Positions 1-51,090 of a DNA stretch of 64,000 nucleotides are shown here, in pieces. The notes below the pieces were generated by a model. That model was given only the letters and a program-made list of their open reading frames with translations, did no database searches and was not told the DNA's origin. This DNA comes from a virus, in IMG/VR virus record IMGVR_UViG_3300025519_000044, positions 1 to 64,000 of that record. One strand, written 5' to 3'. The position numbers were made by a program, and so were the translations under genes. How positions within the stretch are numbered: position 1 is the stretch's first letter; every line of letters begins with the position of its first letter.

Positions 1-153
1 CACTTTCAACTCCTCCTCTTTTTCCTCTACATATTTCCTCATCAATTGTCGGATGACTTCACTCTTGTTTTGCATCAGTGCTTCATTTACGCGGTCGAAC
101 CGATCAAGAAGGTCCTGATCAATCCTGTATTGCCTCGTACGTTTCACTTTCAT
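1..153 (-). CDS. 5' part of RHH/CopG-like protein, truncated by window edge (copy of 48695-49087)
   Basis: Matches the 5' end of 48695..49087; ATG at 153 with GGGAGG RBS. Confidence 0.7.
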   Translation of the reverse strand, partial: MKVKRTRQYRIDQDLLDRFDRVNEALMQNKSEVIRQLMRKYVEEKEEELKV

Positions 154-190
154 ACCTCCCATAACCAAAAAGATGGACACAACATGCGCA

Positions 191-219
191 TTGACATGAT
201 AAAAGTTTGTGATTATAAT
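191..219 (+). promoter_or_regulatory. Consensus sigma-A promoter of the mini CRISPR array (copy 1)
   Basis: TTGACA(191-196)-17 bp-TATAAT(214-219); expected start site ~225-226 is the start of repeat 1. Confidence 0.9.
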
Positions 220-224
220 TAGTC

Positions 225-320
225 CATGAACCATAACACAGGGTGTATTTAAATAGTATCTTTTTAATTAATTAACCTGTGCTATTTTTTATTGAACCGT
301 AACATGAGATGTAAGGGAAG
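225..320 (+). CRISPR. Mini CRISPR array, type I-B-like repeats, one 36-nt spacer (copy 1)
   Basis: CATGAACCATAACACAGGGTGTATTTAAAT (225-254), spacer 255-290, ATTGAACCGTAACATGAGATGTAAGGGAAG (291-320); resembles the 30-nt GTTGAACnnTAACATnnGATGTATTTAAAT repeat family. Confidence 0.78.
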
Positions 321-349
321 AGGGAGCGAACATAAATCCGCTCTCTTTT

Positions 350-859
350 CTATTTTTCCGGTTTCCCGAATTTTTCCGTAAGCGCAGTTTCTGATATAAA
401 CGTATAGGCGCCGTTACTTTTAAAATGGCCATCCGGATAATCGGCGCCGTCTATCTCTTCCACCGATATGCCCCAAGTTTTTGCGGCATCCTTTGCTTCC
501 CACACCTTAATGCCAAGTGGTTTAAAAGTTTTTCGCATTTCCCGGTACATTTCGTATGCTTCCGCGCGATTCTTTCGTTTGTTATTACGTTCTGCTATTA
601 TTTCCTTTATTTTATCGGCAGCCGCCAGAAACTCATCTTCATCTACTTCCCACGTTCCAACCGTTTTATAATCTGTTTGTAGTCTAGATTCGCTGTTGTC
701 GAAAGTGGTTGACGGTAAAACCTCCCCAAGGCTGAATATGTAATCTTCCTTAACGGCATGTTCGACAATCGCAAATGCCTCGGCAGCTTTTGGTGTCCCC
801 TTTACAAGCTCCGGGTAAACAGTTTCGGAATAAGACGTTTCTTTATACACAATTTTCAT
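350..859 (-). CDS. Hypothetical protein, possible C-terminal HTH-like domain (identical to 49284-49793)
   Basis: 169 aa ORF with GGAGG RBS; duplicated. Confidence 0.75.
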   Translation of the reverse strand: MKIVYKETSYSETVYPELVKGTPKAAEAFAIVEHAVKEDYIFSLGEVLPSTTFDNSESRLQTDYKTVGTWEVDEDEFLAAADKIKEIIAERNNKRKNRAEAYEMYREMRKTFKPLGIKVWEAKDAAKTWGISVEEIDGADYPDGHFKSNGAYTFISETALTEKFGKPEK

Positions 860-878
860 TTTTGTTTCCTCCTAATTT

Positions 879-1250
879 TTATGCATTAATTTTAGCGCCT
901 TTAAATCTCCAAAACGCTTTTGTTACCGGTGTATATGTGCCACGTTCTTGTGCCACAATAACACCGTTTTGCAATTCAAGAAACCCTTGTTCTTTACGGT
1001 ATCCGGATCCGGTATAGTAATTTACGTATAAGCGTTCCTTCCCATATTTTGCCCAGTAGTTAACGGAATAGGAATCGCTCTTCATTACGGAATTGATGTA
1101 GGTTTCAACATCTTCCACCGTAATTTCTTTTGCTGCTTTTGCCTCCTTCCATGCGAGCCGGAGAGATTCTGCAAAGTATTCCTTTACCTTTCCGCCAAAT
1201 TTACGTTGTCCTGCTTTAGCAATCTCCCAAGCCCGTTTCATTACGTTCAT
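879..1250 (-). CDS. Small hypothetical phage protein (MKRAWEIAK N-terminus)
   Basis: 123 aa ORF, AAGGAG RBS, strong promoter upstream; near-identical to 49813-50184. Confidence 0.8.
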   Translation of the reverse strand: MNVMKRAWEIAKAGQRKFGGKVKEYFAESLRLAWKEAKAAKEITVEDVETYINSVMKSDSYSVNYWAKYGKERLYVNYYTGSGYRKEQGFLELQNGVIVAQERGTYTPVTKAFWRFKGAKINA

Positions 1251-1282
1251 TTCTCTTATCTCCTTTCCTTTATCTTGATTTC

Positions 1283-1311
1283 ATTGTATCATTTTGTATG
1301 TACATTGTCAA
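1283..1311 (-). promoter_or_regulatory. Strong sigma-A promoter for the leftward accessory genes
   Basis: Minus strand TTGACA-17 bp-TACAAT with extended -10 TG. Confidence 0.85.
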
Positions 1312-1489
1312 TACGTTTTTTGAATTTTTTTTTATTGGTTTTTGAAAAAAAGTGATCCAGCCAAAAAATCCCAAAAAATTTTTTCGAGGCATATAGACAA
1401 AATAGTTCAATTTTCCTATAATTTTGTTAGCAGGCGTTCCCAATTGTCCATGTATTTTGCAAAAAATACCCCCCTATATTATGCCTGCA

Positions 1490-1520
1490 AAAAAGAGCAG
1501 GCTTTCACCTGCTCTTTTTT
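1490..1520. terminator. Bidirectional intrinsic terminator
   Basis: AAAAAAGAGCAGG...CCTGCTCTTTTTT. Confidence 0.75.
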
Positions 1521-1556
1521 CTACTCAATACAGCTGGCTGGCTGTCATCTTTTGAG

Positions 1557-1848
1557 TTGTTGACGAATTGTTGACGAAATTCATCATTGTTGACCATTTT
1601 ACTCCCCATAAAATCAGATAACTAATTTTTAAAATCCACTTATACCAATGGTTTTCGATTCATTTCCATCGAGTTCCTAAATTGCCTAACACCTTCCCAA
1701 GGTGTGGGTCGCGGGTTCGAGTCCCGTCTTCCGCTTAAAGTTTAAACGCTCAAACCTCTTGATATAAAAGGGTTTGAGCGTTTTTTGCTTTTCAACAAAT
1801 TGTAGCTCACGGAAGCACAATTTATGACTTGTTGACGGATTGTTGACG
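1557..1848. mobile_element. attP-like site of phage A (tRNA-Gly core flanked by arm repeats)
   Basis: TTGTTGACS repeats at 1557, 1568, 1587 (left) and 1829, 1840 (right) around a tRNA 3' fragment, next to the integrase. Confidence 0.8.
1689..1735 (+). pseudogene. 3' portion of tRNA-Gly(CCC), the att core
   Basis: ACACCTT-CCC-AAGGTGT anticodon arm plus GGGTTCGAGTCCC T-arm and TCTTCCGCT acceptor strand; 5' half absent. Confidence 0.85.
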
Positions 1849-8960: not shown

Positions 8961-9143
8961 ATGAAGAAAAAACTGACTAACTATTCAAGCGTTGATCATC
9001 ATTGGAAAAAGCTGCTAGGTTGCAAGTGCGGATGGTTCATTGAGACCACAGACGTGCTTCTCATTATCAAAGATTACAACCATAGCAGGCTAATAGATTA
9101 CAGGCAAGAAATTAAGTCGAAACTAGGCGCAATGATCGCCTAG
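8961..9143 (+). CDS. Small hypothetical protein
   Basis: GAGGTG RBS; stop codon lies inside the hammerhead. Confidence 0.55.
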   Translation: MKKKLTNYSSVDHHWKKLLGCKCGWFIETTDVLLIIKDYNHSRLIDYRQEIKSKLGAMIA

Positions 9144-9183
9144 TCCGCCGGAGATAGCCTCCCGGCGCTGATGAGACAGGCTG
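9116..9183 (+). ncRNA. Type II hammerhead ribozyme
   Basis: GTC-GAAA, stem III CTAGGCG/CGCCTAG, TC cleavage site, stem I CGCCGG/CCGGCG, CTGATGA-GAC; loop TAGCCT can pair with AGGCTG. Confidence 0.9.
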
Positions 9184-9240
9184 CGGAAAGGGGCGAATCA
9201 ATGAAAATTAAAACAGGTGATTGGCTTAAACTGAATCGTT

Positions 9241-12551: not shown

Positions 12552-13341
12552 ATACGAATGCCCGATTTGTAAGGATACCGAGTTTGTCTTTTACCGAAAT
12601 GAACAAGGATATGAATTCGCCAAACCTTGCGAATGTCGGGAAAGAAAAGCATGGCGGCGGCGGTTCCGGAACTCCATGATCCCTGATGAGTTTACAAACG
12701 CCAATTTTGAAAACTATCAGCGTACGAGCCAAATCCAAGAAGACATGTATGACCTTACAAAAAGGTATTTGCAAGAATACAAGATGACGACCAATGAAAA
12801 TGGCGAAAAGGAAAAAACGGTTTCTTCCCATAATTTTGGGTTGATTGCAGTTTTTGGCGAACAGCGCATGAAAGAATTGCCATCGGTAGAGCGGGCCACC
12901 GTGAAACAGCAACATAACAATTTTGGGATTGGAAAGACTCATTTACAGATTGCACTTGCAAAACGCCTAATTAAAGACGGATTCAATGTTCTGGTGGTAT
13001 CAGATGTTAATTTCATGGATGAGCTGATTCAGGCCAGGATGATGAACGACGAGGGAGAACAGCTTAATCGTCTGCTTAATGCGGCCACAAATGCAGATGT
13101 GCTGATTTGGGACGACATCGGCAAAGTGAAATGGTCGGAAGCGAAGGAATCTCTTTACTACCAGATTATTAACGAGCGATACCGGAAGCAAAAGCCAATT
13201 GTATTTAACTCGAATGAGGACCGCGGAACCCTCGCAGAAAAGATAGGATATGCGGCCGCAAGCCGGTTGATCGGTCAATGCGGGAATTACCTGCTTGAAG
13301 CTGAGGGAACGGACTGGCGCCTCAAGAAAGGAGCAAGCTGA
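12442..13341 (+). CDS. DnaC/IstB-like ATPase (helicase loader)
   Basis: CPIC..CEC zinc motif, GIGKTHL, VLIWDDIG. Confidence 0.88.
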   Translation: MEQRFQSIAEVMADLLEKAQNRQSEKPKKQDEHGADEYECPICKDTEFVFYRNEQGYEFAKPCECRERKAWRRRFRNSMIPDEFTNANFENYQRTSQIQEDMYDLTKRYLQEYKMTTNENGEKEKTVSSHNFGLIAVFGEQRMKELPSVERATVKQQHNNFGIGKTHLQIALAKRLIKDGFNVLVVSDVNFMDELIQARMMNDEGEQLNRLLNAATNADVLIWDDIGKVKWSEAKESLYYQIINERYRKQKPIVFNSNEDRGTLAEKIGYAAASRLIGQCGNYLLEAEGTDWRLKKGAS

Positions 13342-13517
13342 TGTGTGAACTATGTAATGGTCGGCACGTTGTCTACGAGAATATGGGGTTTGGAATCATG
13401 GTAAAACCATGTCCGGCGTGCGGGCCGAAGCCGGAAGAGCAAATTAAGAAAGAGGAAATGATTTTGCAGCGACGTTTGGAAGAAGCACGGGACCAACTCA
13501 AGATGGAAAGGGTGTAA
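13341..13517 (+). CDS. Small zinc-finger protein (not in ORF track)
   Basis: MCELCNG..PCPACG, 58 aa, AAGGAG RBS. Confidence 0.65.
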   Translation: MCELCNGRHVVYENMGFGIMVKPCPACGPKPEEQIKKEEMILQRRLEEARDQLKMERV

Positions 13518-16262: not shown

Positions 16263-16445
16263 GTGAAACACGTGAAACCAAAAACACGACAAAAGGGCGA
16301 TAAGTATCGGCCCGTCGTTACGGTGCTTAAAGTAAAGCGAGGTCTGCCCACAAAAATTATGGTAAGCGGACAAGAGTACGCGCTTATCCACAAAAACCAG
16401 TATAGGGGAGTGAGAAAATGCGGGCTGAACGCTGCTACACATTGA
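16263..16445 (+). CDS. Small hypothetical protein shared with phage B (61820-61972)
   Basis: Near-identical peptide KGDKYRPVVTVLKVKRGLPTKIMVSGQEYALIHKNQYRG. Confidence 0.7.
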   Translation: MKHVKPKTRQKGDKYRPVVTVLKVKRGLPTKIMVSGQEYALIHKNQYRGVRKCGLNAATH

Positions 16446-16882
16446 ATGAAGAAACAGAAATCCGGGTAGGGAATTGCTTCTTTACCCGAGATGATTTGAT
16501 TTTGATGTATATCGACAGCGGCATGGATGTTTTAAGTTTAGCAAAATCATTGCGTATCGGGCGGCCGAGGATGGAGCGGATATTGGACAAATTCGACATA
16601 CCAAGAAACTGGCATGCAGAATTGACACCGCGGCATCTGCGAGTGTTGCGCTATATCAAATATTTTCAGACGCGTCACAAGCGCAGCCCAACAAACTTGG
16701 AAATCTCAAAAGCATTGAGGCTATCACCTGGTTGCACGAACTACCATCTCAAAAAATTAAAAGCACACGGGTATGTAAACTGGCCAAGGTACAGCAGTGG
16801 CACATTCAAGTTAACTGAAAAAGGGGAAAGGTGGTGCCGGAATGCCCACACATTTAATCTATTCGGCTTGGAAGAAGACTAG
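16418..16882 (+). CDS. LexA DNA-binding-domain-like regulator heading the type IV operon
   Basis: LTPRHLRVLRYI..SPTNLEIS..HLKKLKAHGYV; no peptidase domain. Confidence 0.75.
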   Translation: MRAERCYTLNEETEIRVGNCFFTRDDLILMYIDSGMDVLSLAKSLRIGRPRMERILDKFDIPRNWHAELTPRHLRVLRYIKYFQTRHKRSPTNLEISKALRLSPGCTNYHLKKLKAHGYVNWPRYSSGTFKLTEKGERWCRNAHTFNLFGLEED

Positions 16883-17765
16883 GGATGAAAATGGGGTGAT
16901 TAAGCAGAACACGAAAGACGGTAAAGGAAATGTAATCATCCGGGACATTAAATTTGTGGATCCGATTAAGGAAAAAGATATGGAAGAACACGCCGGCCAA
17001 CGCTTTCTATGTGGAGAGCCAATGACACAAGGAATGAAACTTAAGAAGGTATTTTCCAACGTGTTCACTGACTGGAACATTGCTAAGAATCCGGCCGGAA
17101 CCCATGTATGTCCGGCATGCTGTTTCTCAATTTTGACCACGAAAGAACGATACGGATTGCGGACATTTTCAAATGTGGCGAATGAAGAAAGGCTTTGGCT
17201 GCCAAACCGGGTAGAGATGCGAGAATTTCTATTGCAGCCGCCTGATCCTCCATTTGTTATAAATTTGGCTGTTTCCCAGAAAAAGCACATCGCTTTTAAG
17301 GGGGAAGTGAATTATTCCCGCGACATATTTACCGTCATGTACGAAGAAATGCCGGTGCTGATCGTTAGAAAAGAGTTTGAAAGTTTACTTGCGTTGGTTG
17401 AACATTTTCTCTATGGATTTACGAAAACGGAGATAACAACCGGAGAATACAGTCAAAAACGGATTTTGGACTTTGGTATTGATGCTTGGGAAGCCTTTGA
17501 GGAACGGGTTAAGACGTACCGGGGCAACCCTATACTTGATGTCGTCATGTTTATTGCACAGAAAATTGAAAATGAGGAGGACTTGAAATGTTTTATGGTT
17601 TCAGAACTAGGGATGAAAGTGCAGGAGCTGCCGCCTTACTTGTCTACGCCGTCTACCGCAGCCGAAACCGAAAAAGAGGGCCAAGTGGCATCGACATGTG
17701 GGGACAAATCGAACGGTTCACGAAAGTCAGCGCAAAGCGAGCAATTAGCGTTGGATCTTTTTTAG
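16842..17765 (+). CDS. csf1: Type IV large subunit Csf1 (Cas8-like)
   Basis: FLCG..FTDW..VCPAC zinc region, LLQPPDPPFVI..SQKKHI; first gene of the csf cluster. Confidence 0.8.
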   Translation: MPTHLIYSAWKKTRDENGVIKQNTKDGKGNVIIRDIKFVDPIKEKDMEEHAGQRFLCGEPMTQGMKLKKVFSNVFTDWNIAKNPAGTHVCPACCFSILTTKERYGLRTFSNVANEERLWLPNRVEMREFLLQPPDPPFVINLAVSQKKHIAFKGEVNYSRDIFTVMYEEMPVLIVRKEFESLLALVEHFLYGFTKTEITTGEYSQKRILDFGIDAWEAFEERVKTYRGNPILDVVMFIAQKIENEEDLKCFMVSELGMKVQELPPYLSTPSTAAETEKEGQVASTCGDKSNGSRKSAQSEQLALDLF

Positions 17766-18061
17766 AAGCCTTTAAACGGAAAATGGCATGCGAAACGATC
17801 AATCCTAAATGGTGTGATAGTGGCAGCAAGGTAATGACGGCCATACAAGATGAATTAGGGAACATTGTCATGACTGGGAATGAGCCTGACGGCGGGAACA
17901 GACAGTTTTTAACCGAGATTATGGAAAGCGGAAAAGACCAGGCCATCCTATATGAACTATACAAAGAAACCGCGCGGGTGATTATGTTAGTCCGGGACCG
18001 TCTAGAGAGAGAAAAACCGATTGAACACAAATTAGAAACCATTATTGAGGAGGAAAATTGA
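17588..18061 (+). CDS. Type IV-B small subunit (Cas11-like)
   Basis: 157 aa helical protein between csf1 and csf2; GAGGAGG RBS. Confidence 0.65.
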   Translation: MFYGFRTRDESAGAAALLVYAVYRSRNRKRGPSGIDMWGQIERFTKVSAKRAISVGSFLEAFKRKMACETINPKWCDSGSKVMTAIQDELGNIVMTGNEPDGGNRQFLTEIMESGKDQAILYELYKETARVIMLVRDRLEREKPIEHKLETIIEEEN

Positions 18062-18062
18062 A

Positions 18063-19019
18063 ATGAACCATTACCGTTTAGAAACCATTTACACACTGCT
18101 GCAACCTTTAAGCCATATCGGGGAAAGCGAATCAACTCAAAGCTTTCTGAATACGACTACAGTCGTCAACGATGGAAAGCCGGAGGAAGTATTTGTTTAT
18201 ACGGGAAATGCTTTGAGAGGCATGCTGCGGGACTGTGGGGCGCGTTACTTACTAAACCGGTTAGATATTCGTGTCCCGTTAAAAGCCTTCCATCTGTTGT
18301 TCAGTGGCGGCTCAATCGGTGGTGCCCAGGCGCTGGATATCGATCAGGCGAAGGTAATTCGTAAAGCCCTGCCATTTGTGTCACTGTTCGGAGGAGGCGT
18401 CGGAAATCAGATTCTGGACGGCAAATTGAAGCAGACCTTTGTTTACCCTGTATGCAAAGAAACGAACAACATTATACCAAGTTATGTTGAAAAGTCCGAC
18501 TATAGTTGGAGACATTTTACAAATGTGATTGAGTTTACCCGGAAAGATGACGAGAAGAATGTGAACCTTGCAGAGCAGTTTTTAATTGGACAAACTGAAC
18601 AGCAGTTACTCGAGGGAGAAACCACCAAAAAGAAAAAAGAAAAAGACGGCCCAGCCACACAAATGCGGTATGCAGTTGAATATTTGGCAGCTGGCACGAA
18701 ACTCTGGCACCGGTGGGATATCATTTGTGATGAGCTGGAACTCGGGGCGTTTGTTTCCTGTCTGCATGAATGGCAAAAGCAGCCTTATCTTGGAGGAAAA
18801 AACGGATCCGGATTTGGACTTGTTCAAGCAGACATGGATGTGATTATTAATGGGGAAAGAAAGAAATTCGCCGATATTAGCCCGGAAACCGTTTTCCTCG
18901 GAGAAATTGCAAAAAAAGCAAAAGAAACATATGACGCTCATCTTAAAGAAATGTACGACAATTATGTCATTGATAACAAAGAGGAGTTTACAAAGCTTTT
19001 GGCAGGCGAGGTGAAATGA
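18063..19019 (+). CDS. csf2: Type IV backbone subunit Csf2 (Cas7)
   Basis: PLSHIGE, GNALRGMLRD, LLFSGG, SLFGG, QMRY..E, G-loop LGGKNGSGFG. Confidence 0.9.
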   Translation: MNHYRLETIYTLLQPLSHIGESESTQSFLNTTTVVNDGKPEEVFVYTGNALRGMLRDCGARYLLNRLDIRVPLKAFHLLFSGGSIGGAQALDIDQAKVIRKALPFVSLFGGGVGNQILDGKLKQTFVYPVCKETNNIIPSYVEKSDYSWRHFTNVIEFTRKDDEKNVNLAEQFLIGQTEQQLLEGETTKKKKEKDGPATQMRYAVEYLAAGTKLWHRWDIICDELELGAFVSCLHEWQKQPYLGGKNGSGFGLVQADMDVIINGERKKFADISPETVFLGEIAKKAKETYDAHLKEMYDNYVIDNKEEFTKLLAGEVK

Positions 19020-19699
19020 AGAATTTGAAGATCACGGCCCGTCTTTTGGACGGGCGCGTGAACTCCAATGATGGCATTTTTAATTTGGATAGTATCTTGG
19101 CTTATGCGTGGATGCTGGAAAATCATCCGGATGACTTGCAGAATAACAATTTACGGCCTGATAACGTAATTGAACCGGATTTGCCACTGGCAAAGGATGA
19201 AGATGGCCGGTGGAAAGCATCCCTCGGATTTTACGAACAACATGCTGAAATCGTTGAGTATTGGCATAAAAAAGTAAACGACTTTGACGCGGCCTATTAT
19301 GTGGACTTCCAGGGCAAACGTGGCAAGATTAACGGTGCATCCGGTGAATATAAAGCTTATCGTATGCCACAAATAATACGGGTTGTGAGTGATATTGAAT
19401 TTTATGCCGTCGGGGATCCTGACGAAATTCGGCGCCTACTTGGATATGTAACCAATATCGGTAAGAAAGCATCACAGGGCTATGGTTATGTACGAGAATG
19501 GGCCATAGAAGAAATTGAAGACGACTATACGGATATCGGGCCATATGGAATTATGCGGACACGTCCATTTACAGGCGAGCTCCCGAACGATGGACAAGCC
19601 TATCAAATTAAGAAAGTGCGTCTAAAACCGCCCTACCATTTACACATAGACCGGGTGCCATGCATTATCCCAAACGTGAGGAGAGATCAGCTTGCTTAA
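19016..19699 (+). CDS. csf3: Type IV subunit Csf3 (Cas5)
   Basis: LDSILAYA, LPL, FYAVGD..IRRLL, G-loop IGKKASQGYG. Confidence 0.87.
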   Translation: MKNLKITARLLDGRVNSNDGIFNLDSILAYAWMLENHPDDLQNNNLRPDNVIEPDLPLAKDEDGRWKASLGFYEQHAEIVEYWHKKVNDFDAAYYVDFQGKRGKINGASGEYKAYRMPQIIRVVSDIEFYAVGDPDEIRRLLGYVTNIGKKASQGYGYVREWAIEEIEDDYTDIGPYGIMRTRPFTGELPNDGQAYQIKKVRLKPPYHLHIDRVPCIIPNVRRDQLA

Positions 19700-20408
19700 A
19701 ATAAAACTTCCTGTCCAATTTGACGACGGAAAGGCTATGTATGATGCGGTATTGGCGATCATTCATAAGCAGTCTCCTGTGCTGTCTAAAATGATTCATG
19801 ATAACTACGATTACAACCCATTTAGTGTTGAGTTACCTAATATTGTAAATGTTATAGGCTTAGAGATTGAACCATTTTTTAAAAACCTGAATGGTATCGA
19901 AATATTAAGAGAAGTGTCGTATAAGGATTTAATGAACAGAAAATATGATAATCTGACAATTATGGTACAGTTTCACAATACGACGTTTTCCCGAAAAGGT
20001 TATGACACGCCTATTCCGGATCCAAACCATATTCTTTTAAGCCTTAAAGAGCGTTGGAATCAGCTTTTTCCGGATAAAATCGATATCAAAATTCCATTTC
20101 ATGGAGAAAATACAAGGGAATATACGGTAATTAAATTCTTGAATATCCATTCGGCAGCACACAAAATAGCTGACTATCGGCCATACACCGTTTTTTATGG
20201 CAAAGTGGGATTTAAATTTTACGGAGACGAGGCATACGTTCAAAAAGCAAATATTCTTTTTCGGTTTGCTGAATTTGCGGGTGTTGGACTTAAGCGGCAA
20301 ATGGGAATGGGGGTTACAAAAATATTGGCAAAAGGGGACGTGAAAACAAATGATGACAGAAGCAGAGAAAGAAACGTACATGCTGCGTGCGACGCTGCCG
20401 GGATTTAA
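19692..20408 (+). CDS. cas6: Cas6-family crRNA endoribonuclease
   Basis: YNPFSV, FHNTTF, PIPDP..SLKERWN, C-terminal FAEFAGVGLKRQMGMG G-loop. Confidence 0.82.
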   Translation: MLKIKLPVQFDDGKAMYDAVLAIIHKQSPVLSKMIHDNYDYNPFSVELPNIVNVIGLEIEPFFKNLNGIEILREVSYKDLMNRKYDNLTIMVQFHNTTFSRKGYDTPIPDPNHILLSLKERWNQLFPDKIDIKIPFHGENTREYTVIKFLNIHSAAHKIADYRPYTVFYGKVGFKFYGDEAYVQKANILFRFAEFAGVGLKRQMGMGVTKILAKGDVKTNDDRSRERNVHAACDAAGI

Positions 20409-21126
20409 AAGAAAAGTATCAAGAAGTTTAGAAATTATTCGCGAAGCACTGGCAATAGAAGGCATTAAGTGGTCTGCATCCGTTAGTTTTGGTAAAGATA
20501 GCCTTGTAATGCTCGATTTGCTAAGTCAAGTGATGGACGAAATACCCGTTTATTTTATGGACAGTGATTATAAACTCCCAGAAATATATGAAACTATTGA
20601 AAAAGCACAAGAAAGATATAAAATAAATATTAGTAAGGCCTATTTCGCAGACAGGCGCCCGATGAAAGAAGTATGGGATCAATTCGGGATCCCGGGCATT
20701 AACCGAACTACATCCATGCAAAATAAGGCACTAAAAGTATTAAAGAAAGACGTTTCCGACAGATGGGCAAAAGAAAATGGATACAACGGTATCTTTTGGG
20801 GTATCCGCAAACAGGAGTCCAGTCAACGGAAATGGATGGTCACATCATTTGGCGTGACATTTGAGAATAAGCAAGGATTTTACCGGTGCGCCCCCCTAGC
20901 CTATTGGGATGCCAGTGACATCTGGGCGTACATCGTATCGAGAAACTTGGATTATCCAAAGCTGTATGATTACCAAAAGTATCAAACCCGTGATTGGATC
21001 AGGAATACCGGTTGGGCAACGACAGACGGGGCAGAACGCGGCCGAATCGTTTGGCTTCGTGAATTTTACCCAAACTACTACGACGAATTACGGTGGATGC
21101 TGCCGAAAATAGATGAATACATTTAA
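20350..21126 (+). CDS. cysH: CysH/PAPS-reductase-family protein (type IV-B accessory)
   Basis: SVSFGKDS PP-loop, GIRKQES..R, PLAYW..DIWAYI..YPKLYD. Confidence 0.88.
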   Translation: MMTEAEKETYMLRATLPGFKRKVSRSLEIIREALAIEGIKWSASVSFGKDSLVMLDLLSQVMDEIPVYFMDSDYKLPEIYETIEKAQERYKINISKAYFADRRPMKEVWDQFGIPGINRTTSMQNKALKVLKKDVSDRWAKENGYNGIFWGIRKQESSQRKWMVTSFGVTFENKQGFYRCAPLAYWDASDIWAYIVSRNLDYPKLYDYQKYQTRDWIRNTGWATTDGAERGRIVWLREFYPNYYDELRWMLPKIDEYI

Positions 21127-46835: not shown

Positions 46836-47879
46836 GTGAACGCTATGAAAGGGTTTGACATTTACCATGGCAGCGGAAATGTCGATTTTAAAAAGGCATA
46901 TGCTGCCGGATACCGGATTGTGATGGTAAAAGCGACAGAGGGCAAGACATTTAAGGATCCAAAGTTTTCCGCAAACGTCAAAGCCGCAAAATCTGCCGGG
47001 TTTAAGGTGGGCGCCTACCATTTTGCCCGATTTACAAGCCCGGCGGTCGCCCGGCAGGAAGCGCGGTATTTTTATGGCGCCGTGAAAGGCTATCTCAAAT
47101 ACATGGATGAACCGTTGGTGCTGGATCTTGAGACCAACCATGCCGGCAGCCAGCTGGTCGCGTCCATGCAGGCGTTTTTTTCCGAGCTGAAAAAGCTTAC
47201 CGGTCATAGGCTCATGCTCTATAGCATGGGTTATTTTTATCTCTCAAATTTAAAAGGCCATCATCCCGGTATCCCGTTGTGGTACGCCCGATACGCATCC
47301 AGTCCAATCGGTGTGCACAGCTATTATCTATGGCAAAAGTCGCAGAGCGGGAAGGTGCCGGGGATCTCCGCCTATGTGGACATAAACGAGACAGGCCCGG
47401 ATTATCCGTCCACATTGCAGGCCGAGGTTAAAAAGGCGGCAGCTGCGGTTACTACTGCTAAAAAGGCGGCGTCCACAGCTAAGGAGACAACAACAAAGGC
47501 AGTGGCCAGGCCAACAACCGCGGTAAAAACGACGCCGTACTATGTAACGGCCGGCAAATTAAACATCCGTAAGAGCCCGGGCGGGGACGTTATCGGGCAG
47601 CTTAACCACGGCGACAGGGTGCAGGTGCTGGGCATTTCTGCAGGTTGGGCAAAACTCAAATCGGGCAGCAACGTGGTCTATGTATCTGCTAAGTATCTAT
47701 CAAAATCGCAAACTGCCACAAAGACGGCGCCGAAACCCGTTTACCACACGGTGGTACGGGGAGACACGGCGTCAGCCATTGCCAAAAAATACGGTGTCAC
47801 GCTTGCACAGTTGAAAAGCTGGAACAAGCTTGATAGCAAATACACAATCTATGTCGGTAAAAAAATCCGCGTAAAATAA
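46836..47879 (+). CDS. Endolysin (GH25 muramidase, SH3, LysM)
   Basis: KATEG, GAYHF, LDLE; LNIRKSP SH3; C-terminal LysM. Confidence 0.93.
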   Translation: MNAMKGFDIYHGSGNVDFKKAYAAGYRIVMVKATEGKTFKDPKFSANVKAAKSAGFKVGAYHFARFTSPAVARQEARYFYGAVKGYLKYMDEPLVLDLETNHAGSQLVASMQAFFSELKKLTGHRLMLYSMGYFYLSNLKGHHPGIPLWYARYASSPIGVHSYYLWQKSQSGKVPGISAYVDINETGPDYPSTLQAEVKKAAAAVTTAKKAASTAKETTTKAVARPTTAVKTTPYYVTAGKLNIRKSPGGDVIGQLNHGDRVQVLGISAGWAKLKSGSNVVYVSAKYLSKSQTATKTAPKPVYHTVVRGDTASAIAKKYGVTLAQLKSWNKLDSKYTIYVGKKIRVK

Positions 47880-47891
47880 GGAGGAAAAAAC

Positions 47892-48419
47892 ATGTTACAC
47901 ACTATTATTCAAGCAGTTTACGCAATCATTCTGGCAGGGATTCCGGCGGTGCTCGGTTATGCCGGAAGATACGCAAAGAAATTTTTGCAATCGAAACACT
48001 TGGAAGGCATCGCCATCCGCGCGGTAAAATATGCAGAACAGTTAATGCCGGAACCGGGGCAGGGCGGGGAAAAGTACCGGGCCGCGTCTCAATATCTGGC
48101 GAAAAAGGCATATCAGCTTTTCAAAGTTAACCTGGAGCCGGCCGATATCAGGGCGCTAATCGAGGCGGCGGTCAATGATCTCAACCAAGAACTTGCTACA
48201 TTTGCAGACGCGCCGGCGAAAGAAGCTGTGGAAGACGATGAACCGGCCGAGGAAACGGAACATGCCGGGGAAGAAACAGCATCAGCAGATGAACAGGTAC
48301 TCGGTGCAGTTGATGCAAATAATATTAGCGTAACGGCGGAAAACGTTGTTGCACAAGGAGCAAAAAAAGTCGGAGATATGACGCTGGAAGAATTGCGGGC
48401 GGCATTGGCGAATAAATAA
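47892..48419 (+). CDS. Holin (LL-H-like)
   Basis: N-terminal TM, AVKYAEQ..G.EK..IEAAV. Confidence 0.82.
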   Translation: MLHTIIQAVYAIILAGIPAVLGYAGRYAKKFLQSKHLEGIAIRAVKYAEQLMPEPGQGGEKYRAASQYLAKKAYQLFKVNLEPADIRALIEAAVNDLNQELATFADAPAKEAVEDDEPAEETEHAGEETASADEQVLGAVDANNISVTAENVVAQGAKKVGDMTLEELRAALANK

Positions 48420-48459
48420 GCCGGATCCGGCAATACTAATGATCCACCAGGACAAATCA

Positions 48460-48487
48460 AAAAAGCCCTCGCAAATGCGGGGGCTTG
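48460..48487. terminator. Hairpin terminator after the lysis genes
   Basis: AAAAAGCCCTCGC-AAAT-GCGGGGGCTT. Confidence 0.7.
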
Positions 48488-48513
48488 AAATTTAAAAAAT
48501 AACGTGATAATAT
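48485..48513 (+). promoter_or_regulatory. Sigma-A promoter of the solitary repeat unit
   Basis: TTGAAA-17 bp-TAATAT with extended -10 TG. Confidence 0.65.
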
Positions 48514-48525
48514 CTTTTTAAAGGT

Positions 48526-48624
48526 ATCGCGTCCTTTTAAAAAAAATGCGTGGATTGAAACTGTGAATTGGATATTTGAGCTAAGCCGAAACTGCCGGGG
48601 CTTATTCCTCGGCAGTTTTGCTTT
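48526..48624 (+). CRISPR. Solitary type I-C-like repeat, short unique segment and terminator hairpin
   Basis: ATCGCGTCCTTTTAAAAAAAATGCGTGGATTGAAAC (48526-48561) versus I-C GTCGC..GCGTGGATTGAAA(T/C); followed by AAACTGCCGGGG..CCTCGGCAGTTT. Confidence 0.65.
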
Positions 48625-48638
48625 ATAAATAAGGTCGT

Positions 48639-48673
48639 AAAACCCCTACGCCTTTAGGCTAGTGGTAGTTCAA
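48639..48673 (+). mobile_element. Possible IS200/IS605 end remnant
   Basis: AAACCCCTACGCCTTTAGGCTAGTGGTAGTTCA resembles GCCTTTAGGC-hairpin ends finishing in TTCA. Confidence 0.45.
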
Positions 48674-48694
48674 TTTTTAGCCAGAATTGCGTGG

Positions 48695-49087
48695 CTAAAT
48701 ATTTGTTTCCCAGGCATCCACAGTTGCTTTCATAGCTTCCATGGCATGTTTTTTTGTGGGAAAATGTTCTATGCCGGATTCCCCGTCATCGACATTGTAA
48801 GACGGAACTTCATCCGCATACGGATATTCCGGTCCCCAAGCGAAGAAGTAATTTCCATTTTCGGCCTTCCCGACGGCGTAGGCCTCGCCGTTATTTGGGA
48901 AGTTGTCACGCAATTCAACGATTTCTAATACCTCCACTTTCAACTCCTCCTCTTTTTCCTCTACATATTTCCTCATCAATTGTCGGATGACTTCACTCTT
49001 GTTTTGCATCAGTGCTTCATTTACGCGGTCGAACCGATCAAGAAGGTCCTGATCAATCCTGTATTGCCTCGTACGTTTCACTTTCAT
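48695..49087 (-). CDS. RHH/CopG-like N-terminus fused to an acidic domain
   Basis: RQYRIDQDLLDRF..NKSEVIRQLMRKYV; GGGAGG RBS. Confidence 0.7.
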   Translation of the reverse strand: MKVKRTRQYRIDQDLLDRFDRVNEALMQNKSEVIRQLMRKYVEEKEEELKVEVLEIVELRDNFPNNGEAYAVGKAENGNYFFAWGPEYPYADEVPSYNVDDGESGIEHFPTKKHAMEAMKATVDAWETNI

Positions 49088-49124
49088 ACCTCCCATAACC
49101 AAAAAGATGGACACAACATGCGCA

Positions 49125-49153
49125 TTGACATGATAAAAGTTTGTGATTATAAT
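49125..49153 (+). promoter_or_regulatory. Consensus sigma-A promoter of the mini-array (copy 2)
   Basis: TTGACA-17-TATAAT. Confidence 0.9.
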
Positions 49154-49158
49154 TAGTC

Positions 49159-49254
49159 CATGAACCATAACACAGGGTGTATTTAAATAGTATCTTTTTA
49201 ATTAATTAACCTGTGCTATTTTTTATTGAACCGTAACATGAGATGTAAGGGAAG
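49159..49254 (+). CRISPR. Mini CRISPR array, type I-B-like repeats, one 36-nt spacer (copy 2)
   Basis: Repeat 49159-49188, spacer 49189-49224, 3'-degenerate repeat 49225-49254, then terminator GAGGGAGCG..CGCTCTCTTTT. Confidence 0.78.
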
Positions 49255-49283
49255 AGGGAGCGAACATAAATCCGCTCTCTTTT

Positions 49284-49793
49284 CTATTTTTCCGGTTTCC
49301 CGAATTTTTCCGTAAGCGCAGTTTCTGATATAAACGTATAGGCGCCGTTACTTTTAAAATGGCCATCCGGATAATCGGCGCCGTCTATCTCTTCCACCGA
49401 TATGCCCCAAGTTTTTGCGGCATCCTTTGCTTCCCACACCTTAATGCCAAGTGGTTTAAAAGTTTTTCGCATTTCCCGGTACATTTCGTATGCTTCCGCG
49501 CGATTCTTTCGTTTGTTATTACGTTCTGCTATTATTTCCTTTATTTTATCGGCAGCCGCCAGAAACTCATCTTCATCTACTTCCCACGTTCCAACCGTTT
49601 TATAATCTGTTTGTAGTCTAGATTCGCTGTTGTCGAAAGTGGTTGACGGTAAAACCTCCCCAAGGCTGAATATGTAATCTTCCTTAACGGCATGTTCGAC
49701 AATCGCAAATGCCTCGGCAGCTTTTGGTGTCCCCTTTACAAGCTCCGGGTAAACAGTTTCGGAATAAGACGTTTCTTTATACACAATTTTCAT
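49284..49793 (-). CDS. Hypothetical protein, possible C-terminal HTH-like domain
   Basis: 169 aa; identical to 350-859. Confidence 0.75.
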   Translation of the reverse strand: MKIVYKETSYSETVYPELVKGTPKAAEAFAIVEHAVKEDYIFSLGEVLPSTTFDNSESRLQTDYKTVGTWEVDEDEFLAAADKIKEIIAERNNKRKNRAEAYEMYREMRKTFKPLGIKVWEAKDAAKTWGISVEEIDGADYPDGHFKSNGAYTFISETALTEKFGKPEK

Positions 49794-49812
49794 TTTTGTT
49801 TCCTCCTAATTT

Positions 49813-50184
49813 TTATGCGTTTATTTTAGCGCCTTTAAATCTCCAAAACGCTTTTGTTACCGGTGTATATGCGCCACGTTCTTGTGCCACAATAACACCG
49901 TTTTGCAATTCAAGAAACCCTTGTTCTTTACGGTATCCGGATCCTGTATAGTAATTTACGTATAAGCGTTCCTTCCCGTATTTTGCCCAGTAGTTAACGG
50001 AATAGGAATCGCTCTTCATTACGGAATTGATGTAGGTTTCAACATCTTCCACCGTAATTTCTTTTGCTTCTTTTGCCTCCTTCCATGCGAGCCGGAGAGA
50101 TTCTGCAAAGTATTCCTTTACCTTTCCGCCAAATTTACGTTGCCCTGCTTTAGCAATCTCCCAAGCCCGTTTCATAACGTTCAT
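49813..50184 (-). CDS. Small hypothetical phage protein
   Basis: 123 aa; minus-strand promoter at 50216-50244 (TTGACA-17-TACAAT). Confidence 0.8.
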   Translation of the reverse strand: MNVMKRAWEIAKAGQRKFGGKVKEYFAESLRLAWKEAKEAKEITVEDVETYINSVMKSDSYSVNYWAKYGKERLYVNYYTGSGYRKEQGFLELQNGVIVAQERGAYTPVTKAFWRFKGAKINA

Positions 50185-50487
50185 TTCTCTTATCTCCTTT
50201 CCTTATCTTGATTTCATTGTATCATTTTGTATGTACATTGTCAATACGTTTTTTGAATTTTTTTATTGGTTTTTGAAAAAAGTGATCCCGCCAAAAAATC
50301 CCAAAAAATTTTTTCGAGGCCTATAGACAAAATAAGCCAATTTTCTTATAATTTTGTTAGCAGGCGTTCCAATTGTCCATGTATTTGTAAAAAATACCCC
50401 CCTATGCCTGCACAAAAATAGAGCAGGTGGTTAGCCTGCTCCTTTTTTATTCATGAAAATCCTCCCCATAATCGAGGAGGAAAATGC

Positions 50488-51090
50488 TTATTTTAAATTG
50501 ATGTTTTCTGTTTCCGTACCAAAAGCGCCCGTTTGGACTTGTACTTTTAGATCAGAAGAATTAGCGACATCTTCGGACACATCAAAAACAACTCTGCCGC
50601 CCATTTCTGATCCTGGGTTTAGATCCTGCATGAAAAAGCTGTTATCAATAGATCCATCTTCTTTTTGGTTAGCCGACATACTTGCTTCCGCATCAGCTTC
50701 ATATGTCTTAGATCCGAGCTTTAGCTTGAAAAAGCTCGAGTCAACCGTTACGGCTTCATTCCCGTTATTCTTTACATTCAAATCTATGACTAAGAATGTA
50801 CCGTTTGCCGTTTCCTGTAATGCTGATGGGCCAACCTTTTTAGTAGTTGAGGTTTTTGTAACCTTGTACTGCATGTCACCAACTTTAACAGTGTCGCCAA
50901 TTTTATATTCTTTCTTGGATGCAGCTTTTTTAGGCGAGGAAGCAGTAGTACTCTTGCTATCTTTAGAATCTTTTGCAGAATCGTCGTTCCCTCCATTTGA
51001 ACCTATTGCCCCAGCGACAATAATTACAACAATCACCCAGAACCACCATTTCTTATAAAATGGTTTTTTAGTTTTTCCTTCTTTAGCCAC
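50488..51090 (-). CDS. DUF4352-type membrane-anchored protein
   Basis: KKPFYKKWWFW TM anchor; YKIGDTV..LNPG..VVFDV. Confidence 0.82.
   Translation of the reverse strand: MAKEGKTKKPFYKKWWFWVIVVIIVAGAIGSNGGNDDSAKDSKDSKSTTASSPKKAASKKEYKIGDTVKVGDMQYKVTKTSTTKKVGPSALQETANGTFLVIDLNVKNNGNEAVTVDSSFFKLKLGSKTYEADAEASMSANQKEDGSIDNSFFMQDLNPGSEMGGRVVFDVSEDVANSSDLKVQVQTGAFGTETENINLK

Follow-up and report, generated by a model that had tools for sequence, protein, structure and literature searches.

The window analysed here comprises the first 64 kb of a 91,358-bp IMG/VR virus record. Self-comparison of the record revealed two related temperate siphophages in tandem, with a 1.5-kb island common to both; the 91-kb record represents two tandem phages, a cointegrate or an assembly join. 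Regions of the shared island were found at window positions 1-1606 and 48935-50453 and at record positions 88007-91358, the last 126 bases of the record being identical to 1481-1606. The sequence of positions 1-884 is identical to that of 48935-49818, and, as the two tandem phages have the island in common, the mini-array described below is present twice in the window. The island is located after the lysin and holin genes (46836-48419) and ahead of the next integrase, and its leftward genes encode a ribbon-helix-helix fusion protein, a 169-aa protein and a Gp111-like protein. The mini-array is placed within this post-lysis island of a temperate siphophage, outside any CRISPR-cas locus. The only cas genes of the record are those of a type IV operon 28 kb away. 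Features of the window and of the related host locus are summarized in Table 1.

Table 1. Features distinguished in the 64-kb window and at host locus L033
Feature	Coordinates	Strand	Details
Second, identical copy of the mini-array	191..358	+	Promoter 191-219, R1 225-254, spacer 255-290, R2 291-320, terminator
Type II hammerhead ribozyme	9115-9185		Early region of the phage; 39.4 bits against an Rfam gathering score of 37
Type IV-B-like operon	16418-21126		LexA-like HTH regulator, Csf1, Cas11, Csf2, Csf3, Cas6, CysH-like protein
Solitary type I-C-like repeat unit	48485..48625	+	Own promoter, repeat end TGGATTGAAAC, 21-nt tail, terminator
Ribbon-helix-helix (CopG-like) repressor fused to an acidic C-terminal domain	48695..49090	-	Divergent from the mini-array promoter
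Sigma-A type consensus promoter	49125..49153	+	TTGACA 49125-49130, 17-nt gap, TATAAT 49148-49153; predicted start near 49160
Repeat-like element 1 (psi-R1)	49159..49188	+	30 nt, 3' end ATTTAAAT; CRISPR-DR3 match
Spacer portion (psi-S)	49189..49224	+	36 nt; putative guide for the host cas6b promoter site
Repeat-like element 2 (psi-R2)	49225..49254	+	First 23 nt conserved, hairpin ACAT/ATGT; CRISPR-DR3 match
Intrinsic terminator	49250..49292	+	13-bp stem (49250-49262 with 49273-49285), 10-nt loop, U-rich tail
Divergent host mini-array	L033, 13278-13365		Degenerate repeat 13278-13307, 28-nt spacer 13308-13335, repeat 13336-13365 with a degenerate 3' end
Candidate target	L033, 13211 to 13176	- (cas6b strand)	Preceded by PAM TCA; covers the -35 of TTTACA-17-TAAAAT

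The mini-array (49125-49292, plus strand) starts with a promoter that matches the consensus at 12 of 12 hexamer positions and is the sole perfect site within 48000-50500. The first repeat-like element, psi-R1, begins six bases past the TATAAT box and carries a hairpin (ACAC/GTGT) as well as an 8-nt 5' handle, ATTTAAAT; on the basis of established I-B biology, the predicted Cas6b cut is placed between 49180 and 49181. Comparison with the Rfam CRISPR-DR3 family (RF01316) gave 33.3 bits for psi-R1 over the full model and 24.7 bits for psi-R2 over model positions 8-30, both scores being under the gathering score of 41 bits. The two matches have the same orientation and lie 66 nt apart, and the 23 model positions matched by psi-R2 are its first 23 nt. 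The degenerate, G-rich 3' end of psi-R2 forms part of the terminator stem, as its 5' arm; a simple scan overlooked this terminator because of its 10-nt loop. Folding of the whole unit gave -31.4 kcal/mol (z = -2.7). The 4-bp repeat hairpins are thermodynamically weak and do not stand out, which is also true of the host repeat, so the two-sided stem change between the elements (ACAC/GTGT versus ACAT/ATGT) is soft evidence only. The promoter scan, the Rfam comparison and the fold thus confirmed every detail given in the preliminary description, i.e. promoter, 30-nt repeat, 36-nt spacer, second repeat kept over approximately 23 nt and terminator, and its definition of the locus as a promoter-driven, self-contained, I-B-like mini-array with one spacer is upheld.

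The unit differs from canonical type I-B arrays in that its repeats score below 41 bits, no adaptation genes accompany it and its one spacer is near-invariant across five phage records. It also differs from RNA anti-CRISPRs of the Racr kind, which consist of a single repeat and no spacer, since it has two repeat-like elements 36 nt apart. An ordinary small array was observed in an unrelated IMG/VR phage (L047, 5430-5650): it is a genuine array of the DR3 type, with four repeats and three different spacers; the DR3-type repeat family is therefore also carried by phages in this form.

The 169-aa protein of the island shows 94% identity to an NCBI protein of Heyndrickxia coagulans, and this similarity identifies Heyndrickxia (Bacillus) coagulans as the host of the phage. 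BLAST comparison of a 2.1-kb island segment with phage and plasmid collections revealed no relatives, and scans of genome contigs with the exact R1 pattern and with the 169-aa protein gave no match. A comparative study of H. coagulans described type I-B, type I-C and prophage-borne type IV systems in this species (PMC8954581). The I-B repeat of strain 2-6 ends with GTATTTAAAT (PMC8954581, Table 4) and is matched by psi-R1 at 23 of 30 positions, an alignment with a host array that agrees with the I-B-like character proposed earlier.

When metagenomes were scanned with the H. coagulans I-B repeat, 15 contigs (L026-L040) with genuine arrays were recovered. These contain 692 spacers, 395 of them unique; the most frequent length among the 692 is 36 nt, as in the phage spacer. 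Approximately 45 distinct host spacers, several of them perfect, lie within 4 mismatches of the phage record, so the H. coagulans-type I-B system targets these phages. The 5' flank of the matched sites is TCA in 23 of 45 cases, with TTA, TCG or TCT in most others, and this preference indicates that TCA is the PAM of the host I-B system. Two host spacers match the island itself (48451-48485 and 48552-48586), and at least eight host I-B spacers match the csf region (16418-21126).

Comparison of the phage spacer with all 15 contigs gave two matches, both in a 160-nt region upstream of cas6b on L033, a metagenome contig with a complete locus (cas6b-cas8b-cas7-cas5-cas3-cas4-cas1-cas2-array). A divergent mini-array and a candidate target site are found there. 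The phage unit and the host mini-array align end to end: the first repeat-like element of each contains the unusual CCATAAC, and the second is degenerate at the same 3' end. Spacer positions 1-22 are identical except for 6, 12 and 18. From established structures, every sixth base is known to be flipped out in type I complexes and stays unpaired. By our calculation, three differences among 22 positions would fall exactly on 6, 12 and 18 with a chance of approximately 1 in 1,540, and none of 300 shuffles gave a phage/host spacer match of such quality. That the differences are confined to every sixth base is evidence, at the sequence level, of selection on the guide for pairing in the manner of Cascade. 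With the host regulator spacer, the phage spacer shares at least 9 PAM-proximal bases, the number by which Cas-regulating RNAs of viral origin (Cracrs) are recognized (bioRxiv 10.1101/2024.10.29.618823).

TTTACA-17-TAAAAT is the best promoter candidate upstream of L033 cas6b, and the candidate target overlaps it. Within positions 1-12 of the target, in register, 10 of 10 pairing positions match both guides, after which complementarity decays. One target base is missing opposite flipped position 12; when this is allowed for, the phage guide pairs at 20 of 20 positions (through position 23) and the host guide at 19 of 20. The missing base may be a deliberate register break, which allows 20-nt recognition and blocks the licensing of Cas3. 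There is no room for a toxin gene (creT) between the target and cas6b in L033, and the host element is consequently of the CreR type and not CreTA. Both the target and the host mini-array come from one host I-B locus, that of metagenome contig L033, whose assignment to H. coagulans is indirect.

Several observations count against a regulatory reading of this match. The in-register complementarity amounts to only 11 nt plus the PAM and its seed is T-rich; in approximately 3% of shuffles, a T-rich seed of 11 nt next to a PAM occurs at some point within 10 kb. Seed position 3 is a C in one related phage (G004) and in the strains behind three RNA runs, and this base would mismatch the L033 target. 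Finally, conservation of the array among phages is not much above that of the downstream gene, which differs by approximately 3%.

The mini-array was found in five phage records (G000, G001, G002, G003 and G004). Its spacer is identical in three other phages and carries a single change, T3C, in a fourth (G004), so the comparison of spacers among related phages proposed in the preliminary description found them near-invariant. The four other phages keep both promoter hexamers intact but differ in the intervening bases. Conservation of the hexamers, R1 and spacer extends to phages whose upstream flank is only 81% identical.

Transcription of the island was followed in stranded RNA-seq of a cultured strain carrying the T3C spacer variant, the strand convention being fixed by the leftward genes at 49780-50220. 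Plus-strand RNA rises from approximately 59 (bin ending at 49187) to 292 (49188-49261), a fivefold increase, and to 466 (next bin). The start of this plus-strand transcript coincides with, or lies close to, the start predicted for the mini-array. The end of the lysis genes and the attachment region are nearly silent in the same run; the island is expressed while most of the prophage is silent. Read-through of the terminator is substantial in these long-fragment libraries, which see long molecules and could not show a processed species of approximately 66 nt. Minus-strand RNA resumes just left of the array.

The anatomy of the unit, its homology to a host regulator, the PAM-flanked target at a promoter and the CRISPR pressure on these phages together fit a published kind of element, and we read the unit as an I-B Cracr. 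It is probably (we put the chance at roughly three in four) a phage crRNA-like regulatory RNA directed against the host I-B system, i.e. a viral copy of a CreR-type Cas-regulating mini-array. The preliminary description had considered repression of host I-B through Cascade loading, and had remarked that the spacer looks like promoter DNA. The first proposal, although still putative, gains support, as the spacer matches a PAM-flanked site at the cas6b promoter and the unit copies a host regulatory mini-array; the second holds, since the matched site lies over the -35 of the candidate cas6b promoter.

The function of a Cracr in this setting can be outlined as follows. The consensus promoter would drive strong transcription from the first repeat, including in lysogens. 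Host Cas6b would cut both repeat-like elements and leave an RNA composed of the 8-nt handle ATTTAAAT, the 36-nt guide and a 3' hairpin. This RNA would be taken up by host Cascade, in competition with genuine crRNAs, and the guide would direct the complex to its TCA-flanked target, which overlaps the cas6b operon promoter at the -35. We propose that, because complementarity at this site is only partial, Cas3 would not be licensed and the outcome would be repression instead of cleavage. Cas6b processing, Cascade loading and repression of cas are each predicted steps. Lower cas expression would then protect the phage or prophage, which many host spacers target.

Repeat mimicry driven from a strong promoter would also suit a pure decoy, similar to a Racr, in which the RNA merely soaks up Cas6b and Cascade subunits and the spacer sequence is irrelevant. 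The Cracr mechanism as published also involves competition for Cas proteins (10.1101/2024.10.29.618823), and next to the mini-array lies a Racr-type unit with a solitary I-C-like repeat. A sequence-independent decoy, however, would not need a spacer that is invariant or nearly so among phages, nor a copy of a host spacer that differs only at positions 6, 12 and 18, and a Racr consists of one solitary repeat, lacking both spacer and second repeat (PMC10651486). We consider a pure decoy unlikely.

The I-C-like unit itself lies approximately 600 nt upstream of the mini-array and matches Rfam CRISPR-DR9 weakly (22.2 bits, E 0.011). Plus-strand RNA starts at this unit in the stranded RNA-seq, and it adjoins the mini-array in G002, G003 and G004 as well. 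A second copy was observed at the end of the second phage (record 86906-87045), without a mini-array. The unit likely specifies a separate, companion counter-defence RNA, either a Racr or an I-C Cracr. Since I-B and I-C systems both occur in H. coagulans, the island may be a counter-defence cassette of RNAs directed at two subtypes. The ribbon-helix-helix fusion protein encoded between the two units possibly serves as the regulator of the island, as a candidate anti-CRISPR-associated (Aca-like) protein.

Viral mini-arrays classically act in conflicts between viruses, and the 36-nt length of the spacer is canonical, which would be in keeping with a guide that steers host I-B interference to a competing phage or plasmid. 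No such competitor was recovered. The spacer has no protospacer in the window, with up to 3 mismatches allowed, or in the whole record; an 11-nt match at 48511-48521 was judged to be due to chance. Searches of 2.9 million IMG/VR contigs, both exact and with every sixth base free, returned array copies or chance matches only, and contigs L041-L046, from the IMG/VR spacer search, had no flanking repeats at the match. There was likewise no protospacer in 50,697 phage records and 72,556 plasmids, where all matches had E values of at least 1. The comparison of the spacer with host cas promoters and with phages or plasmids, as proposed in the preliminary description, thus gave a PAM-flanked site at the host cas6b promoter, but none in the phage and plasmid collections. 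The spacer is moreover fixed across the phages instead of variable, which argues against an adaptive or inter-viral spacer. We consider a role in conflict between viruses very unlikely.

The homology of the unit to host DNA is clear and its conservation only modestly above that of its flanks, as would be expected if a fragment of host CRISPR-cas DNA had been acquired by recombination and persisted as a functionless relic. A relic would hardly have gained a perfect promoter exactly at the repeat or a terminator built from a degenerate repeat end. In addition, the R1 hairpin is kept through a two-sided change, and the unit is transcribed and retained in five phage records. We regard this explanation, too, as highly improbable.

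The preliminary description had linked the mini-array to the type IV (Csf) module of the phage, an operon which is unusual in having its own Cas6. This link failed on co-occurrence. Array and csf2 occur together in G000 and G002, while the array without csf2 is found in G001 (88% complete) and in G003 and G004 (rated complete), i.e. in three of the five array phages; csf2 without a DR3-like element is found in G005, G010 and G011, which are complete, and in four fragments. No CRISPR array was found within 10 kb of csf at any of the csf loci examined in five relatives or near the csf module of the window. The array and csf are distributed independently, and the type IV connection is thus unsupported. 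That the unit supplies a guide RNA to the phage's own Csf complex, processed by the phage Cas6, is scarcely credible: the phage does encode Csf1, Cas11, Csf2, Csf3, Cas6 and a CysH-like protein with no array nearby, and two phages combine both elements, but the others separate them, the array sits in the post-lysis island far from the operon, no similarity could be detected between the phage Cas6 and host Cas6b, and the unit shares homology with a regulatory element of the host I-B locus. It is also very doubtful that in G000 and G002 the Csf complex additionally loads the mini-array RNA and sits on the host cas6b promoter independently of host Cascade; if true, such loading would assign type IV-B a specific function, the silencing of host CRISPR from a phage.

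Shmakov et al. reported I-B host mini-arrays that lie upstream of cas6 and have their target in the interval between, together with phage copies in which the 5' part of the spacer is the same (bioRxiv 10.1101/2023.03.03.530964). Such I-B copies are known from the Clostridium perfringens phages c-st and phiSM101 and from a Fusobacterium phage (bioRxiv 10.1101/2023.03.03.530964). The arrangement found here resembles that of these copies in the host mini-array upstream of cas6, the PAM-flanked target between mini-array and cas6, the phage spacer whose 5' part, including the seed, is as in the host, and the repeats of the same family, ending with ATTTAAAT. It differs from them in its Bacillaceae host (H. 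coagulans), in a phage spacer that is 8 nt longer than the host's instead of 3 nt shorter, in host and phage spacers that differ only at every sixth base, in a target that lacks one base at flipped position 12, and in the solitary I-C-like repeat RNA alongside.

According to Liu et al., viral Cracr RNAs compete for Cas proteins and make Cas proteins silence their own promoter (bioRxiv 10.1101/2024.10.29.618823). The phage unit is likewise virus-encoded, located outside cas loci and a mimic of a host CreR/CreA element, with which it has 9 or more PAM-proximal bases in common, and Cas proteins are again predicted to repress their own promoter. The published experimental cases belong to types V-A, I-E and I-F, with I-B candidates in Bacillota by prediction only (bioRxiv 10.1101/2024.10.29.618823), whereas the unit described here is of the I-B type. 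Autorepression by host CreR was described by Liu, Li and colleagues, and CreR and CreA are the Cas-regulating RNAs of hosts (bioRxiv 10.1101/2023.03.10.532045). The L033 element conforms to these in its degenerate repeat, short spacer and repeat, with partial complementarity to the cas promoter; the element in the window, by contrast, is on a phage and has a consensus promoter and a full-length 36-nt spacer. With Racr, the solitary-repeat RNA anti-CRISPR (Camara-Wilpert et al., Nature 2023, PMC10651486), the unit has in common promoter-driven repeat mimicry by a phage and clustering with other counter-defence elements; it is distinguished by a conserved spacer, a second repeat and a defined candidate DNA target.

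The mini-array offers a clean, testable I-B example of phages turning the self-regulation of host CRISPR against the host, in which guide, PAM, promoter target and host spacers are defined. H. coagulans, an industrial species and a probiotic, is difficult to engineer, and prophage RNAs of this kind could explain silent CRISPR systems in lysogenic production strains.
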